A stretch of DNA of 64,000 nucleotides from assembly GCF_013122565.1 (NCBI RefSeq), contig NZ_CP053258.1; one strand, written 5' to 3'. The notes beneath the pieces are model-generated. The model did not search any database. It was not told the origin of the DNA and saw only the letters and a list, made by a program, of their open reading frames with translations. A program made the position numbers and the translations under genes. Of the stretch, positions 1,883 to 27,743 are shown in pieces; the stretch's first letter is position 1; the number at the start of each line of letters is the position of its first letter. Source of the DNA: Escherichia coli. GTDB lineage: Bacteria > Pseudomonadota > Gammaproteobacteria > Enterobacterales > Enterobacteriaceae.

Positions 1883-4027
1883 TTAAAGTGCGCAGGAGAC
1901 GCAGCCTTCAATTTCAGTGCCTTCCAGCGCCATCTGACGCAGGCGGATGTAGTAGAGCGTTTTGATACCCTTGCGCCAGGCGTAAATCTGCGCTTTGTTG
2001 ATATCGCGAGTGGTGGCGGTATCGGGGAAAAACAGCGTCAGCGACAGCCCCTGATCGACATGGCGAGTCGCTTCCGCGTAGGTGTCGATGATCTTTTCTG
2101 CGCCGATTTCGTAAGCATCCTGATATAGCGCCAGATTCTCGTTAGTCATAAACGGGGCAGGGTAGTAAACGCGTCCTGTTTTGCCCTCTTTGCGTATCTC
2201 TACTTTCGCCACAATCGGATGAATACTCGACGTAGCATGGTTGATATAAGAGATAGAACCGGTTGGCGGCACCGCCTGAAGATTCTGGTTGTAAATGCCG
2301 TAGCGCATCACGTCGTCGCGCAGCTGCGCCCACATCTCACGGGTAGGTAACGTAATACCGCTACGGGTAAACAGTTCGCCAACTTTCGCCGTTTTCGGCT
2401 GCCAGTTCCCTTGCAGATATTGGCTAAAATATTCACCACTGGCATAGCGTGACTGTTTGTACCCGGCGAAGGTTTCACCGCGTTCGCGTGCCAGCAACAT
2501 CGAGGTACGCAGTGCGTGCCAGGTGATGGCATAGAAATAGAGATTGGTGAAATCCAGTGCTTCCGGCGAACCATAAGCGATGCCTTCTCGCGCCAGATAG
2601 CCGTGTAAATTCATCTGCCCCAGTCCGATGGCGTGCGAGGCGGCATTTCCGGCTTCGATGGACGGCACGCTGCGAATATGACTCATATCTGATACTGCCG
2701 TTAAACCGCGCACGGCAGTCTCTACCGTGCGGGCAAAGTCGGGGGAATCCATGGTGTGGGCAATATTCAACGAACCTAAATTGCAGGAAATATCATGGCC
2801 TGTACGGGCATAGTCGAGATTCTCGTCATACTCTGAGGCACAGTTGACCTGCAAAATCTCTGAGCAAAGATTGCTCATATTTATGCGCCCGGCGATAGGG
2901 TTAGCACGGTTTACCGTGTCTTCATACATGATGTACGGATAGCCGGACTCAAACTGGATTTCTGCCAGCCGCTGGAAGAAATCACGGGCGTTGAGGTATT
3001 TTTTGCGGATGCGTTCATCGGCAACCAGTTCGTCATAGTGTTCGCTAATGGCGATATCGGCAAACGGCTTGCCATAAACTCGCTCAACGTCATAGGGCGA
3101 AAACAGCGCCATCTGCGCATTCTCTTTTGCCAGATGGAAAGTGATATCCGGGATCACCACCCCCAGCGACAGTGTTTTAATGCGGATTTTTTCGTCGGCA
3201 TTTTCCCGCTTTGTATCGAGAAAACGCAGAATATCGGGATGATGAGCATGTAAATAGACTGCCCCAGCCCCCTGACGCGCGCCGAGCTGGTTGGCATAGG
3301 AAAATGCGTCTTCCAGCATTTTCATCACCGGAATCACGCCAGAAGATTGATTTTCAATACGTTTAATTGGCGCGCCCGCTTCTCGCAGATTCGACAGCAA
3401 AAATGCTACGCCGCCGCCGCGTTTCGACAGTTGCAGTGCGGAATTTACCGCCCGGCCAATCGACTCCATATTGTCTTCAATACGCAGCAGAAAACAGGAA
3501 ACCAGTTCGCCGCGCTGCTGCTTACCGCAGTTGAGGAATGTCGGCGTGGCTGGCTGAAAGCGTCCAGACAGCATCTCATCAGTTAGCTGGGTCGCCAGTG
3601 TTTCATCGCCTTGTGCCAGCGTCAGCGCCACCATCGTGACTCGATCGGCAAAATCTTCCAGATAACGCTTACCGTCGAATGTTTTCAGCGTATAGCTGGT
3701 GTAAAACTTCCATGCCCCGAGGAATGTCTGGAAACGAAAACCGCTGGCGTGCGCGTGGGCAAACAGCGTAATGACAAAATCGCGAGAGTAGCGGTTGAGG
3801 ACGTTTTCATCATAGTAACCTTCGTTGACCAGCCAGTTCAGGCGCTGCTGCTGGCTACTGAAGGTCACACTGTTCGGACGCACATGTGTCGTCATAAAGG
3901 CGTCTACTGCCTGGCGGTCTTTATCGAACTGAATGCGACCTGCGCTATCGTAAAGATTAAGCATCGCATTCAGAGCGTGATAATCCATCGTTTCCTGCGT
4001 CAGGCGTTCTGCGGTTGTCGTTGCCAA
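1883..4027 (-). CDS. nrdE: Class Ib ribonucleotide reductase alpha subunit
   Basis: 714-aa ORF; ends with C-terminal redox cysteine pair (…EGCVSCAL); operon context nrdHIEF. Confidence 0.95.
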
Positions 4028-4410
4028 AATTCGGTTACTCCTTTACGAACGTTTTCGATATCGCTTTGCGTACCCATGAGTTCAAAGCGGTACAGCCACG
4101 GCACGCCGCATTTCCGGGCAATCACATCTCCGGCGCGGCCATACGCCTCACCAAAGTTGCGATTACCCGAAGCAATAACGCCGCGCAGCAACGCCCGGTT
4201 ATGCTCGTCGTTTAAAAAGCGAATTACCTGTCGTGGCACCGCGCCAGCTGTACCGCCGCCGCCGTAAGAGGGCACGATCAGGATGTAAGGCTCGTCTACC
4301 TGAATCCGTTCCCGCTCATTGAGCGGGATGCGCACCGCGGGCAGCCCTAAACGTTCGATAAAACGCTGCGTATTTTCGGAGCTGCTGGAGAAGTAGACGA
4401 GCTGGCTCAT
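4000..4410 (-). CDS. nrdI: Flavodoxin-like NrdI
   Basis: 136-aa ORF between nrdH and nrdE; overlaps nrdE start by 28 nt. Confidence 0.92.
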
Positions 4411-4652
4411 GCACTGGCCGCGTGTGGCGCTGGATGCAGACGGTTAATCATGTCCGGACGGAAACCAGACCAGCTAAGATCGCCAGCAATCACTACCGGC
4501 AACTGACGAAAGCCCTGAGCACGCAGCGCTTCTGCCGCTTCAGGTACGCGATCGACATTAATCATTTCAAAATCAAAGCCCCGGTTTTCCATCGCCCGTT
4601 TGGTGGCGTGGCACTGAACGCAATCGTTACGAGTGTAAATAGTAATGCGCAT
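4407..4652 (-). CDS. nrdH: Glutaredoxin-like protein NrdH
   Basis: 81-aa ORF with CVQC redox motif ([21 protein letters not shown]…); 4-nt overlap with nrdI start. Confidence 0.93.
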
Positions 4653-4756
4653 GATTCGTATTTCCGTTTAAAATGAAGATACGGCGCGATGATACGCGTC
4701 GGGTTGTCTCTCTGTTGATACAGAGATACTAGATGTAGTTGAAAAAAGATTCAACC

Positions 4757-4772
4757 ACACAATATATAGCAA
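4757..4772. promoter_or_regulatory. Candidate NrdR box in nrdHIEF promoter region
   Basis: Sequence acacaatatatagcaa matches 13 of 16 positions of the NrdR-box consensus as I recall it (acaCwAtATaTwGtgt); lies upstream of nrdH. Confidence 0.35.
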
Positions 4773-4899
4773 ATAGTGGTCGAAATTACCCTGAGTATGA
4801 GCGTGACGGGGTAGGGGGATTTTTGTGATTCAGCAGACAAAAAGAAACCCCGAAGCCAGGCTTCGGGGTCAAAGACGCGTATTTATTATCATTGTTGCA

Positions 4900-5229
4900 C
4901 TACGATTTGCGCATGCTTAACAGTGCGCCGATAAAAATACCTACCGCAGCTGCTGTACCCACGCTACACCAGGGTCTTTCACGAACAAAAGAATCCGCGC
5001 AGCCAACGGCATCGCGCGCGGCTTGCTGGACGCGAGTACGACCATGCATTCGCGCCCTGGTTTCTTTCAGTAGAGCCTGCGCTTTACTACGAGCGGCTTC
5101 AGCTTCCCCTTTGGCGTCGCTGCCCCAGGACTTCAACACAGACTCGAGGCTGTCAGCTAATTGATTGACATCATTCTGGATATCCTGCACGCCATCATCA
5201 ACGTCGTTGCGGTTCGGTCGGTTAAACAT
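4900..5229 (-). CDS. ygaM: ElaB/YqjD/YgaM family membrane-anchored stress protein
   Basis: ORF track gives 113 aa from 5241; K-12-like start is the internal Met (MFNRPNRNDVDD…), giving 109 aa. C-terminal hydrophobic anchor (AAAVGIFIGALL). Confidence 0.8.
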   Translation of the reverse strand: MFNRPNRNDVDDGVQDIQNDVNQLADSLESVLKSWGSDAKGEAEAARSKAQALLKETRARMHGRTRVQQAARDAVGCADSFVRERPWCSVGTAAAVGIFIGALLSMRKS

Positions 5230-5380
5230 ATGATCCCCCATTAGAATTCGATGTAATTTTCAGTGTAGACCATAATTTTCTTAACTGACGTTCATCGCGG
5301 CTTTATGGACTTTTCTGAAAGCGTTGTGAATGCGCAATCAGGTAAGGTAGGCCCGCGGTTGATAATAACGAGGATCAAAT

Positions 5381-5725
5381 ATGTATTTACGACCAGACGA
5401 GGTGGCGCGCGTACTTGAAAAAGTCGGTTTTACTGTCGATGTGGTAACCCAGAAAGCTTATGGTTACCGCCGTGGGGAAAATTATGTCTATGTTAATCGC
5501 GAAGCGCGAATGGGACGTACCGCCCTGGTGATTCATCCAACATTAAAAGAACGTAGTTCAACACTGGCTGAACCCGCTTCCGATATTAAAACTTGCGATC
5601 ATTATCAACAATTTCCGCTCTATTTAGCGGGTGAACGTCATGAGCATTACGGTATCCCGCATGGCTTTAGTTCGCGTGTTGCGCTTGAACGTTATTTGAA
5701 TGGTTTATTTGGCGAAGCCAGTTAA
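5381..5725 (+). CDS. ygaC: Uncharacterized protein YgaC (DUF2002)
   Basis: 114-aa ORF, synteny between ygaM and alaE. Confidence 0.8.
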
Positions 5726-21989: not shown

Positions 21990-22300
21990 AGCAATAACAG
22001 CGTTACGGTGCACCACGCCTGACTGAAGAACTGCGTGCTCAGGGTTACCACTTCAACGTAAAACCGTGGCAGGAGGTCCGGACTGAAAAAACTGCTCAGG
22101 ACATTATCGGCAGGGTACGCACTGGTAGTCTGTAAACTGAACCGACTGGGGCGCAGTATGTGGCATCTTGTCGTGCTGTTGGAGGAGCTGTGCGGACGTG
22201 GTATTAACTTTCGTGCTCTGGCCCAATCTATATTTGCCCAACAATGGGGGGACGGAAGCTGTAAAAGTAAAATAATCTGCGATCTCAGATTTATTGAGTG
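21990..22300 (+). pseudogene. pinH: Frameshifted remnant of a Pin/Hin/Gin-family serine DNA invertase (pinH-like)
   Basis: One frame translates to [52 protein letters not shown], which aligns well with Pin/Gin …PGLKRALKRLQKGDTLVVWKLDRLGRSMKHLISLVGELRERGINFRSLTDSI…; upstream similarity continues only after a frameshift, and no N-terminal catalytic Ser region or C-terminal HTH is present. Confidence 0.55.
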
Positions 22301-22639
22301 ATTTTTATGTGAGCAGAAGATATTCATCAGAAACGATTATGTAAATCATTTTATTTTGCCGACTGCCTGATTGTCGAAAGAAAAGAATACGCCCGTGTTT
22401 CCTGAATAGATTGACTTTTTTATCCAACCACACTTCAGCGCACTGCGTTTAAAAAATGCCTCATTCTTATGCGGAATATCATCATTTCATCATGATGTCT
22501 TTGATGAGCGGTGAACACAATACACTTGCGCTGTCTCTTCAGGATGAATCCCCTGGTCTGGTGCCTGTGGGCTGATGTTGCAGCAAAGCTAAGGTCGCTT
22601 AAACGCTACTCAGTATTCACTTTTCAGAGGATGAAATTT

Positions 22640-25600
22640 ATGAACAGGACCAGTCCCTATTATTGTCGTCGCTCAGTACTTTCCTTATTGATATCTGCCT
22701 TGATATATGCCCCGCCCGGGATGGCTGCCTTCACTCCTGATGTTATTGGTGTGGTAAACGATGAGACTGTAGATGGCAGCCAACGAGTAGATGAACGAGG
22801 TACAACAAATAACACTCATATTATCAACCATGGCCAGCAGAATGTTTATGGCGGGGTATCTAATGGAAGTCTTATTGAATCTGGTGGATATCAAGATGTA
22901 GGAAGGCATAACAATTATGTGGGGCAGTCTAATAATACAACCATTAACGGGGGCAGACAGACAATTCATGACGGGGGTATTTCCACAGGTACGATAATCG
23001 AGAGTGGCAATCAGGACGTTTATACAGGTGGTATCAGCAATAGAACGACAATTAAGGGTGGTAATTCACACATAAGTGGGGGGACTGCGAATGGCACAAT
23101 CATTGATGGTGGCAGCCAACGAGTAACAACTCAGGGGCATGTCGACAGTACAACGATAAATAAGTCTGGCTCTCAGGACATCACGCAAGGAAGTCTGGCA
23201 ACGAACACCATCATAAATGGTGGTCGACAGTATGTTGAACAGAGCACAGTAGAAACAACCACCATTAAAAATGGCGGTGAGCAAAGAGTATATGAGAGCC
23301 GTGCGCTGGACACGACGATTGAAGGCGGAACTCAGTCTCTGAATAGTAAGTCAACGGCAAAAAATACGCAGATCTATTCTGGTGGCACGCAAATTGTTGA
23401 TAACACCAGCACCTCGGATGTTATTGAAGTTTATTCCGGTGGCGTGCTTGATGTTAGTGGTGGTACGGCAACAAATGTTACCCAGCACGATGGTGCAATT
23501 TTAAAAACTAACACTAACGGTACGACGGTGAGCGGTACGAATAGTGAAGGTGCATTCTCCATCCACAATCACGTGGCAGACAATGTGTTGCTGGAAAACG
23601 GTGGTCATTTAGACATAAACGCATATGGTTCGGCAAACAAGACGATTATTAAAGATAAAGGAACAATGTCAGTTTTAACCAATGCTAAAGCTGATGCGAC
23701 CCGAATAGATAATGGCGGGGTTATGGATGTTGCAGGAAACGCGACAAATACCATAATTAATGGTGGCACACAGAATATTAATAATTATGGCATAGCCACA
23801 GGCACCAATATCAACAGCGGAACGCAAAATATCAAAAGCGGCGGGAAAGCTGACACAACAATTATATCCTCCGGGAGCCGGCAGGTTGTTGAGAAAGATG
23901 GTACGGCAATTGGCAGCAATATTAGCGCCGGAGGCTCGCTGATTGTCTATACCGGCGGTATTGCACATGGGGTTAACCAGGAGACGGGCAGTGCTTTAGT
24001 TGCCAACACGGGTGCAGGGACTGATATCGAAGGATACAACAAGCTCTCTCACTTCACTATTACCGGAGGGGAGGCTAATTATGTTGTGCTGGAAAATACC
24101 GGCGAACTGACGGTAGTGGCTAAAACCTCGGCGAAAAATACTACCATTGATGCTGGCGGTAAGCTGATTGTCCAGAAGGAGGCTAAAACAGATAGCACCA
24201 GACTTAATAATGGCGGCGTTCTGGAGGTTCAGGATGGTGGTGAGGCTAAGCATGTTGAGCAACAATCCGGCGGCGCATTAATTGCTTCCACGACTTCCGG
24301 AACACTTATCGAAGGAATCAACAGTTATGGTGATGCTTTCTACATCAGGAATTCAGAAGCTAAAAATGTAGTGCTGGAAAACGCTGGCTCATTAACAGTC
24401 GTCACTGGTTCCCGGGCAGTTGATACGATTATTAATGCCAACGGCAAAATGGATGTTTATGGAAAAGATGTTGGCACTGTACTCAATAGTGCTGGCACCC
24501 AAACAATATATGCCAGTGCCACTTCTGATAAAGCAAATATCAAAGGTGGCAAGCAAACGGTATATGGTTTAGCCACTGAAGCAAATATCGAAAGTGGTGA
24601 ACAAATTGTTGATGGTGGGTCAACAGACAAAACGCACATCAATGGCGGTACGCAAACCGTTCAGAATTATGGTAAGGCAATCAATACCGATATCGTCTCT
24701 GGCCTACAACAAATTATGGCAAACGGGACAGCGGAAGGTTCCATTATTAATGGCGGTTCACAGGTAGTTAATGAGGGCGGTCTGGCTGAAAATTCGGTGC
24801 TTAATGACGGCGGCATACTCGATGTGCGGGAGAAAGGCAGCGCAACGGGGATACAGCAGAGTAGCCAGGGCGCTTTGGTTGCAACCACCAGGGCGACGCG
24901 GGTCAAAGGAACACGCGCGGATGGCGTCGCGTTCAGCATCGAGCAGGGTGCGGCGAACAATATCCTGCTGGCAAATGGCGGCGTGTTAACCGTGGAGTCA
25001 GACACCTCTTCTGACAAAACACAGGTCAAGACGGGCGGACGGGAGATCGTCAAAACAAAAGCCACTGCGACAGGCACGACGCTCACCGGCGGTGAACAAA
25101 TTGTCGAGGGTGTGGCGAATGAGACAACAATTAACGACGGCGGAATACAAACAGTTTCAGCTAACGGAGAGGCAATAAAAACAAAGATCAATGAAGGCGG
25201 TACGCTGACAGTCAACGATAATGGCAAAGCGACAGATATCGTCCAGAACAGCGGTGCCGCTCTCCAGACGAGCACGGCTAACGGTATTGAAATCAGCGGT
25301 ACTCACCAGTACGGCACTTTTTCCATTGTCGGCAATTTAGCGACCAATATGTTGCTGGAAAATGGCGGTAATTTATTGGTATTAGCAGGTACCGAAGCTC
25401 GCGACTCCACGGTTGGCAAGGGTGGGGCAATGCAAAACCTGGGTCAGGACTCCGCTACAAAGGTTAACTCTGGCGGGCAATATACCCTTGGGCGGTCAAA
25501 AGATGAGTTTCAGCCTCTGGCCCGGGCAGAAGATCTCCAGGTCGCTGGCGGTACGGCAATCGTCTACGCAGGTACGCTGGCGGATGCATCGGTCAGTGGC

Positions 25601-27220
25601 GCGACAGGAAGCCTGTCGTTAATGACGCCACGGGATAATGTTACGCCAGTTAAACTCGAAGGGGCGGTCCGGATTACCGATAGCGCGACATTAACTCTGG
25701 GAAATGGCGTCGATACAACGCTTGCCGACCTGACGGCTGCCAGCCGGGGCAGTGTCTGGCTTAACAGCAATAATTCCTGTGCAGGTACCAGCAACTGCGA
25801 ATATAGAGTAAACAGTTTGCTACTCAACGACGGTGATGTTTATTTATCAGCACAAACAGCTGCGCCTGCCACAACTAACGGTATCTACAATACGCTGACA
25901 ACCAATGAACTTTCCGGTAGCGGTAATTTCTACCTGCATACCAACGTTGCTGGCTCCCGCGGTGATCAACTGGTCGTCAGCAACAACGCCACTGGTAATT
26001 TTAAAATCTTTGTTCAGGATACCGGCGTCAGCCCTCAGTCTGACGATGCGATGACGCTGGTGAAAACAGGGGGAGGGGATGCGTCGTTTACGCTGGGCAA
26101 TACCGGCGGTTTCGTTGATCTTGGGACCTATGAGTATGTCCTGAAAAGCGACGGCAACAGCAACTGGAACCTGACCAATGATGTCAAACCCAACCCGGAC
26201 CCCAACCCAAATCCAAAGCCAGACCCAAAACCCGATCCAACGCCAGACCCAAATCCAAAACCAGACCCGACTCCCGAGCCAACGCCGACACCCGTTCCGG
26301 AGAAACGCATTACGCCTTCTACGGCAGCCGTACTCAATATGGCAGCAACATTACCGTTGGTATTTGATGCTGAGCTAAACAGTATTCGCGAGCGGTTGAA
26401 CATAATGAAAGCGAGTCCACACAACAATAATGTCTGGGGGGCGACGTATAACACCCGTAATAATGTCACCACCGATGCGGGGGCTGGGTTTGAGCAGACG
26501 CTGACCGGAATGACAGTGGGGATCGACAGTCGTAATGATATTCCTGAAGGGATTGCCACGCTGGGCGCTTTTATGGGCTATTCACATTCACATATCGGTT
26601 TTGATCGCGGAGGACATGGCAGTGTGGGCAGTTATTCTCTGGGCGGCTATGCCAGTTGGGAACATGAAAGTGGTTTTTATCTGGACGGTGTCGTGAAGCT
26701 GAACCGTTTTGAAAGTAACGTAGCCGGTAAAATGAGCAGCGGTGGAGCCGCCAACGGCAGTTATCGCAGCAACGGGCTGGGCGGTCACATTGAAACCGGG
26801 ATGCGATTTACCGATGGTAACTGGAACCTGACGCCGTATGCATCGTTAACGGGGTTCACCGCTGATAACCCCGAATATCATTTATCCAATGGCATGGAAT
26901 CGAAATCAGTCGATACTCGCAGTATATATCGCGAACTGGGCGCAACGCTGAGTTACAACATGCGTCTGGGGAACGGTATGGAAATTGAGCCGTGGCTGAA
27001 GGCGGCTGTACGCAAAGAATTTGTCGATGATAACCGGGTGAAGGTGAATAATGACGGTAATTTCGTCAATGATTTGTCGGGCAGACGTGGAATATACCAG
27101 GCAGGTATTAAAGCCTCATTCAGCAGTACGTTAAGCGGGCATCTCGGGGTGGGGTATAGCCATGGTGCCGGTGTGGAATCACCGTGGAACGCGGTAGCTG
27201 GTGTGAACTGGTCGTTCTGA
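22640..27220 (+). CDS. ypjA: AIDA-I/YpjA-type autotransporter adhesin (type Va secretion)
   Basis: Track ORF 22511..27220; start placed at MNRTSPYYCRRSVLSLLISALIYAPPGMAA (extended signal peptide, SD agagga upstream) giving 1526 aa. Long passenger with ~19-residue degenerate repeats (…T.INGG.Q.V…GG…), Pro-rich linker KPNPDPNPNPKPDPKPDPTPDPNPKPDPTPEPTPTPVP, C-terminal beta-barrel ending …GVNWSF. Confidence 0.9.
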   Translation: MNRTSPYYCRRSVLSLLISALIYAPPGMAAFTPDVIGVVNDETVDGSQRVDERGTTNNTHIINHGQQNVYGGVSNGSLIESGGYQDVGRHNNYVGQSNNTTINGGRQTIHDGGISTGTIIESGNQDVYTGGISNRTTIKGGNSHISGGTANGTIIDGGSQRVTTQGHVDSTTINKSGSQDITQGSLATNTIINGGRQYVEQSTVETTTIKNGGEQRVYESRALDTTIEGGTQSLNSKSTAKNTQIYSGGTQIVDNTSTSDVIEVYSGGVLDVSGGTATNVTQHDGAILKTNTNGTTVSGTNSEGAFSIHNHVADNVLLENGGHLDINAYGSANKTIIKDKGTMSVLTNAKADATRIDNGGVMDVAGNATNTIINGGTQNINNYGIATGTNINSGTQNIKSGGKADTTIISSGSRQVVEKDGTAIGSNISAGGSLIVYTGGIAHGVNQETGSALVANTGAGTDIEGYNKLSHFTITGGEANYVVLENTGELTVVAKTSAKNTTIDAGGKLIVQKEAKTDSTRLNNGGVLEVQDGGEAKHVEQQSGGALIASTTSGTLIEGINSYGDAFYIRNSEAKNVVLENAGSLTVVTGSRAVDTIINANGKMDVYGKDVGTVLNSAGTQTIYASATSDKANIKGGKQTVYGLATEANIESGEQIVDGGSTDKTHINGGTQTVQNYGKAINTDIVSGLQQIMANGTAEGSIINGGSQVVNEGGLAENSVLNDGGILDVREKGSATGIQQSSQGALVATTRATRVKGTRADGVAFSIEQGAANNILLANGGVLTVESDTSSDKTQVKTGGREIVKTKATATGTTLTGGEQIVEGVANETTINDGGIQTVSANGEAIKTKINEGGTLTVNDNGKATDIVQNSGAALQTSTANGIEISGTHQYGTFSIVGNLATNMLLENGGNLLVLAGTEARDSTVGKGGAMQNLGQDSATKVNSGGQYTLGRSKDEFQPLARAEDLQVAGGTAIVYAGTLADASVSGATGSLSLMTPRDNVTPVKLEGAVRITDSATLTLGNGVDTTLADLTAASRGSVWLNSNNSCAGTSNCEYRVNSLLLNDGDVYLSAQTAAPATTNGIYNTLTTNELSGSGNFYLHTNVAGSRGDQLVVSNNATGNFKIFVQDTGVSPQSDDAMTLVKTGGGDASFTLGNTGGFVDLGTYEYVLKSDGNSNWNLTNDVKPNPDPNPNPKPDPKPDPTPDPNPKPDPTPEPTPTPVPEKRITPSTAAVLNMAATLPLVFDAELNSIRERLNIMKASPHNNNVWGATYNTRNNVTTDAGAGFEQTLTGMTVGIDSRNDIPEGIATLGAFMGYSHSHIGFDRGGHGSVGSYSLGGYASWEHESGFYLDGVVKLNRFESNVAGKMSSGGAANGSYRSNGLGGHIETGMRFTDGNWNLTPYASLTGFTADNPEYHLSNGMESKSVDTRSIYRELGATLSYNMRLGNGMEIEPWLKAAVRKEFVDDNRVKVNNDGNFVNDLSGRRGIYQAGIKASFSSTLSGHLGVGYSHGAGVESPWNAVAGVNWSF

Positions 27221-27380: not shown

Positions 27381-27743
27381 TGGTGGAGCTGGCGGGAGTT
27401 GAACCCGCGTCCGAAATTCCTACATCCTCGGTACTACATGCTTAGTCAGTCTTTACATTCGCTTGCCAGCTGCGGACGGACACGCCACTAACAAACTAGC
27501 CTGATTAAGTTTTAACGCTTCAACCCCAGGCAGGGCTTCCACGCGATCTCTTTTGGGTTTGACCTCTCTTGATCCCCGTCCTAAGAGCGGAGGCTAGGGA
27601 GAGAGGGCTCTAAGCAGGTTATTAAGCTGCTAAAGCGTAGTTTTCGTCGTTTGCGACTATTTTTTGCGGCTTTTTACGAGGCCAACCGCCCCTCGGCATG
27701 CACCTTGGGTTTCGCAAATCCCGTCGAATCCAGAATCAGCCCC
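27381..27743 (-). ncRNA. ssrA: tmRNA (SsrA), 363 nt
   Basis: Reverse complement reads GGGGCTGATTCTGGATTCGACGGGATTTGCGAAACCCAAGGTGCATGCCGAGG … and contains the tag reading frame GCAAACGACGAAAACTACGCTTTAGCAGCTTAA (ANDENYALAA*) and the tRNA-like 3' end …GGGTTCAACTCCCGCCAGCTCCACCA. Confidence 0.96.

Follow-up and report, generated by a model that had tools for sequence, protein, structure and literature searches.

The Escherichia coli pseudogene pinH upstream of ypjA joins fragments of IS3 and of a Pin-type DNA invertase

The DNA analyzed here, referred to as the window, is a stretch of 64,000 nucleotides from Escherichia coli. A short scar is located in it within the interval delimited by the 3' ends of ileY and ssrA, between ypjCB and the adhesin-like autotransporter gene ypjA/ehaD (Table 1). 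The GC content of this locus is 30-45%, compared to ~50-58% in the flanking core genes. The part of the scar that derives from a DNA invertase gene reads towards ypjA/ehaD, whose start codon follows ~390-420 bp further downstream. The region 21700-22650 is collinear with the corresponding regions of K-12 and LHM10-1 (96-97% identity). In K-12, the pseudogene pinH is placed between ypjA and ypjB/ypjC, with ileY beyond, and in collinear RefSeq loci PGAP labels the same DNA 'recombinase family protein' (incomplete, missing N-terminus and C-terminus). Locus, orientation relative to ypjA and the IS3/pin junction described below are all the same in K-12 pinH and in the window. The preliminary description of this DNA had named pinH as a sequence to compare, and the scar is indeed this catalogued pseudogene, which was already known. 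In a literature search, pinH surfaced only in a genome-announcement paper. The window differs from K-12 by strain-level substitutions in the scar, by an intact ypjCB and by the absence of the CP4-57 prophage between ypjA and ssrA. The ssrA 3' end is located 160 bp from the ypjA stop codon, where K-12 has a 22 kb prophage in between; since ssrA directly follows ypjA, this strain is without a CP4-57-type prophage at ssrA.

Table 1. Positions of the scar and of neighbouring features in the window.
Feature	Position	Strand	Basis
ileY tRNA	19538-19613	+	Rfam
ypjCB, intact 444-aa ORF, left neighbour	20370-21704	+	ORF list; 'YpjCB family protein' in LHM10-1
IS3 left terminal inverted repeat remnant, 18 nt, TGATCTTACCCAGCAATA; left boundary of the scar	21979-21996	+	15/15 match with K-12 IS3A at its annotated start
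Internal IS3 orfB (insF) fragment, IS3 nt ~541-615, codons ~62-86, with a 1-nt deletion	21997-22070	+	blastn, tblastn
Equivalent of K-12 pseudogene pinH (b2648, NC_000913.3 2783065-2783304, minus strand)	22062-22301	+	Annotation and alignment-converted coordinates
Illegitimate junction, IS3 nt 615 / pin nt 124	22071-22073		Comparison of IS3 nt 600-640, pinE nt 100-135 and window 22055-22085
Pin-type serine invertase remnant, central part of the catalytic domain	22074-22220	+	blastn, Pfam Resolvase
Decayed pin tail, to pinE nt ~302 (about codon 101) of 555; frame shifted by a 4-nt deletion	22221-22248	+	Local alignment, weak alone
ypjA 5' leader module, outside the remnant; sets the right boundary	22260-22640	+	87% identity to paralogous locus
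ypjA/ehaD, adhesin-like autotransporter gene	22641-27220	+	ORF, PGAP annotation of collinear loci, K-12 ypjA
ssrA (tmRNA)	27381-27743	-	Rfam

The preliminary description had recognized a decayed invertase of the Pin/Gin/Hin type beside the YpjA/EhaD gene, and this identification was confirmed. In a blastn comparison with K-12 pinE, 22074-22220 on the + strand matched pinE nt 124-270 (codons 42-90) with 124 identities over 147 nt (84%, E 1e-43). The tblastn search of the window with the invertase placed PinE aa 38-94 at 22062-22232 (72% identity, E 1.3e-19). The Pfam Resolvase model PF00239 was matched with 32.8 bits (E 9e-8; curated cut-off 23.3 bits), the remnant covering profile positions 52-103 of 145. 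The peptide quoted in the preliminary description is read in frame 3 of the + strand from 21963. However, only part of the interval 21990-22300, which had been assigned to the invertase as a whole, belongs to it: the left third (21990-22070) is a fragment of IS3. Of the 184 codons of the gene, between about a quarter and a third are retained (~150-175 bp).

The remnant shares the Resolvase catalytic-domain region with pinE (b1158, prophage e14) and with the invertases of P2-like and other E. coli phages, to which it is 84% identical at the nucleotide level and 72-80% at the amino acid level over codons 42-90. Compared to the PinE protein, 10 of 49 residues differ. Unlike these relatives, it is without the region of the serine nucleophile, the E-helix, the HTH domain, pix sites and adjoining tail-fibre genes. 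The homology begins at pinE nt 124 (codon 42), the 5' 123 nt of the gene being missing. Neither the N-terminal active site with its nucleophilic serine (PinE residues ~1-41, YVRVST motif) nor PinE aa 95-184, comprising the E-helix and the C-terminal HTH, gave a tblastn match in the 64-kb window, and no further PinE-like or IS3 pieces were found elsewhere in it. The loss of both ends had been correctly noted before and can now be given as codons 1-41 and the codons from about 102 onward. Within the retained part, the conserved Asp of the DRLGR catalytic motif is replaced by Asn (NRLGR), and a W-to-C and an R-to-W change are located close to this motif. Homology to the resolvase/invertase family thus shows descent from the Hin/Gin/Cin/Pin invertases only; none of the functional hallmarks of the family is preserved.

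The DNA immediately to the left of the invertase remnant derives from IS3. In blastn, 21984-22070 corresponded to IS3A nt 528-615 with 78 identities over 88 nt (89%, E 4e-28), and in a tblastn search against the window InsF aa 54-83 was matched with 70% identity (E 5e-8). A Pfam HTH_21 match to the orfB piece (E 2e-4) stayed under the curated cut-off. The scar begins with the remnant of an IS3 left terminal repeat, in which the TGA preceding the 15 matched nucleotides agrees with the TGATC terminus of the right end of IS3A; the DNA to the left of 21979 is the 3' flank of ypjCB, conserved in K-12 and LHM10-1. A resemblance to IS3 OrfB had been considered in the preliminary description and dismissed. 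In view of the 88-nt match and the 18-nt terminal repeat, this dismissal was mistaken.

Between the terminal repeat and the orfB fragment, IS3 nt ~19-540 are deleted between two TTACCC microhomologies. About 93% of the 1,258-bp element is gone, and with it orfA, the DDE domain and the right repeat. Of the TG...CA repeats that bound IS3 on both sides only the left one is present, the right end being absent from the window, and of the orfA-orfB transposase with its DDE domain only InsF aa ~54-86 remain. The reading frame of the invertase had been reported as broken upstream. The break is real, but its cause is the junction with foreign IS3 DNA and not a frameshift within pin. The so far unannotated IS3 remnant with its terminal repeat accounts for the missing 5' end of the invertase gene, and constitutes a minor addition to the annotation.

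The right boundary of the scar is set by the leader of ypjA. Starting exactly at 22260, the window is 87% identical to the leader and the 5' coding region of a YpjA-like autotransporter paralogue. This paralogue is situated between ymgI/ymgJ and minE, without an invertase; in K-12 only the pseudogene ycgI remains of it. As the same leader occurs at an invertase-free locus, it was not supplied by an invertible element. The leader is thus the gene's own, with the pin fragment merely abutting it. The ~11 nt at 22249-22259, between the pin tail and the leader, are uninformative.

Several minor observations concern the leader. Its last ~220 nt (22420-22640) are invariant in the window, K-12 and LHM10-1 and, by eye, differ less between the paralogues than does the coding sequence downstream. 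An annotated 39-aa ORF is located in this leader (22456-22575), in which, also by eye, all five differences between the paralogues are non-synonymous; the conservation therefore looks to be at the nucleotide level (regulatory DNA or gene conversion). The predicted RNA fold of the leader is unremarkable (z = +0.41). Ahead of the annotated ATG at 22641, the ypjA frame contains no stop for 43 codons, as far back as a GTG at 22511, which is probably due to chance, though it falls in the hyper-conserved part of the leader. An RpoS-holoenzyme site listed for the ypjA-ileY spacer in a genomic-SELEX table was set aside, as the estimated offset between K-12 genome versions puts the site upstream of ypjC and not at pinH.

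The paralogous leader also bears on the origin of the invertase fragment. The fragment might have come from the e14/ycg neighbourhood in one block with the ypjA module, if a deletion had joined pin to the ymgJ-autotransporter leader and the resulting block had been copied into the ileY-ssrA region. Indeed, K-12 pinE (1209685-1210239, +) shares its strand with ymgJ-ycgI (1223264-1223907), the paralogue of the ypjA leader and gene, from which it is located 13 kb upstream, and the two segments are similarly diverged (pin 84%, leader 87% identity). However, the intervening genes left no trace, invertases of free phages resemble the remnant just as closely (84%), the mobile prophage e14 is absent from some strains, and the short stretch at 22249-22259 between the two segments carries no information. 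We therefore consider joint travel unlikely. This idea is speculative and concerns the origin only; the verdict of an inert scar is unchanged by it.

The distribution of the scar was analyzed in 5,426 complete E. coli genomes. The 951-bp region 21700-22650 was present in one collinear piece in 3,002 of them. Chimeric queries, in which pin 5' or 3' sequence was contiguous with the remnant, found such an arrangement in none of the 5,426 genomes. When the 54-aa remnant was used as a protein query, all matches were further copies of it (45-95 aa, E. coli), and an intact parent gene was not among them. One 72-aa chromosomal E. coli protein at NCBI is identical to the translation of 22083-22298 except for its first residue, where a CTG start codon is read as Met. 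The remnant ORF varies between lineages: the variants have the IS3/pin junction in common, show many substitutions and changes of frame, and in some cases retain the ancestral W and R residues that are lost here. This variation is typical of an old, drifting pseudogene.

Full copies of IS3 near the left flank of the scar were found in five of the 5,426 genomes. Both of the two that were inspected are modern secondary insertions, 99.8-99.9% identical to IS3A, at the window equivalents 22013/14 and 22476-79. They represent independent insertions into the short intergenic region (positions 3755-5012 in locus L008 and 4222-5479 in locus L009). One is located inside the old IS3 remnant, with everything downstream lost, including pin and ypjA; the other lies in the ypjA leader. 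While the modern IS3 copies are 99.8-99.9% identical to each other, the IS3 remnant of the scar is ~11% diverged from them. A search of contigs from other species with YpjCB returned only two short contigs, from a Planococcaceae MAG and an Arthrobacter agilis assembly, which give no outgroup information. The ypjCB-like DNA on these contigs has 84-86% amino acid identity and is most likely assembly contamination.

Phase variation of adhesins is common, and in the Hin system the invertase gene hin reads towards fljB. The preliminary description had raised the question whether an ancestral invertible switch once controlled the autotransporter gene. In such a scenario, the scar would be all that is left of an invertible promoter element of the Hin kind, by which YpjA/EhaD was phase-varied. 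The invertase would have lain inside the segment, its 3' end directed at the adhesin gene together with an outward-reading promoter, and IS3-associated deletions would have erased the crossover sites as well as the 5' and 3' parts of pin before the diversification of E. coli. The geometry, and only the geometry, fits: the pin fragment reads towards ypjA at the distance given above, as hin does for fljB. The crossover sites of such a switch were searched for directly. The real e14 crossover sites served as a yardstick, pixL (CTCTCGAAAACCTTGGTTTGGGAGAA) and pixR (TTCTCCCAAACCAACGTTTATGAAAA) each having 1 mismatch in 18 to the family consensus. With this 26-bp consensus (TTNTCNNAAACCNNGGTTTNNGANAA), no match at ≤3 mismatches was found in the 64 kb. 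Between 21400 and 23000, the best 26-mer had 7 of 18 mismatches and the best half-sites 2 of 9, so that this region contains no full or half site of the hix/gix/pix type; the 26-bp repeats of the hix/gix type proposed earlier for this locus are thus absent from it. The 12-bp core (AAACCNNGGTTT) occurred at chance frequency in the window and nowhere near the locus. Inverted repeats in 21400-23000 have arms of 12-25 nt with 71-93% complementarity, and none resembles a crossover site. An inverted pair of 26-bp sites (hix/gix/cix/pix) flanking an invertible segment, as is characteristic of the family, was accordingly not found. In Hin and Gin, the Fis-dependent recombinational enhancer is located in the 5' part of the invertase gene, of which the first 123 nt are deleted here.

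Further evidence speaks against a switch at this locus. The junctions at both ends of the remnant are illegitimate, and the 380 bp of ypjA leader from 22260 are common to the invertase-free paralogous locus. The start of the leader at 22260 and its sharing with the paralogue argue against any invertase-based control of the adhesin. The arrangement was seen in a single orientation in all ~3,000 collinear genomes, none of which has a fuller pin gene. Finally, the remnant is 84% identical to phage tail-fibre invertases, and its nearest intact relatives are phage invertases that lie beside oppositely oriented tail-fibre and tail-fibre-assembly genes. An ancestral switch at ypjA is thus highly improbable.

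The scar is very probably an inert composite that consists of a piece of a phage-type invertase gene (Pin/e14-like or P2-like) and of IS3-like pieces (the left repeat and ~75 bp of orfB), abutting the native ypjA leader, and represents an old prophage/IS scar in the ileY-ssrA integration region. The following course of events may be envisaged. A prophage or island with an invertase would once have resided in the AT-rich ileY-ssrA interval. An IS3-like element would have inserted beside or inside the invertase region, and illegitimate or short-homology deletions would then have removed all but the present pieces. The scar would have been fixed before the diversification of the E. coli lineages that bear the locus, with point mutations and small indels accumulating afterwards. 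Hints of prophages in the interval are provided by the K-12 prophage at ssrA and by an integrase beside ileY in LHM10-1. Searches for att-like repeats of the ileY or ssrA 3' ends in 19.6-27.4 kb returned only chance matches of ≤10 nt, and no island was delimited. An intact ancestral arrangement was found in none of the 5,426 complete E. coli genomes, and the history given here is a reconstruction: the order of IS3 insertion and deletions cannot be recovered, and we infer both this order and the prophage origin.

The scar is inert today, the dimerization helix and the recombination sites being among its missing parts, and no current function is expected. The conservation of the fragment in about 3,000 genomes and the presence of a callable ORF, which some annotations list as a protein, could be taken to mean that some benefit keeps it in place, whether as a small protein (47-72-aa ORF, 22083/22158-22301) or as regulatory DNA of ypjA. 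Against this, neither start nor frame nor end is constant among the lineage variants, which have many non-conservative changes, and the fragment is without any functional element of a serine recombinase. In a promoter/terminator scan, no promoter-like site was found on the + strand of the scar, counts being at the level of shuffled sequences. Rfam had no match in the scar or in the leader, the only matches being ileY tRNA and ssrA. Usefulness is therefore almost certainly not the reason for its persistence; the inert remnant is retained because of its linkage inside a conserved intergenic region. The dN/dS ratio of the remnant versus pinE is 0.29, a value that mixes divergence from the functional era with divergence after decay, and it neither supports nor refutes decay, because most of the divergence could predate it. 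As no functional part survives, the scar itself matters little, and the use of its description lies in a tidy annotation of the ileY-ssrA region.

Some observations were made on the neighbouring genes. The intact ypjCB of the window is split into ypjC and ypjB in K-12, and carries internal stops or frameshifts in two other strains (DUF5507/DUF5508). On the opposite side of ileY, an uninterrupted ORF of 750 aa (16726-18978, minus strand) may represent an intact allele of ygaQ. The ygaQ pseudogene of K-12 has the same position and the same length of 2,253 nt; the assignment as ygaQ follows from position only. In other strains, this position is taken by an 'alpha-amylase family glycosyl hydrolase' gene that is frameshifted. 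The locus 19000-22650 is unusually polymorphic: the best identity over 21700-22650 among the 5,426 complete E. coli genomes is 97.3%, and other strains are ~94% identical over 19000-22479.
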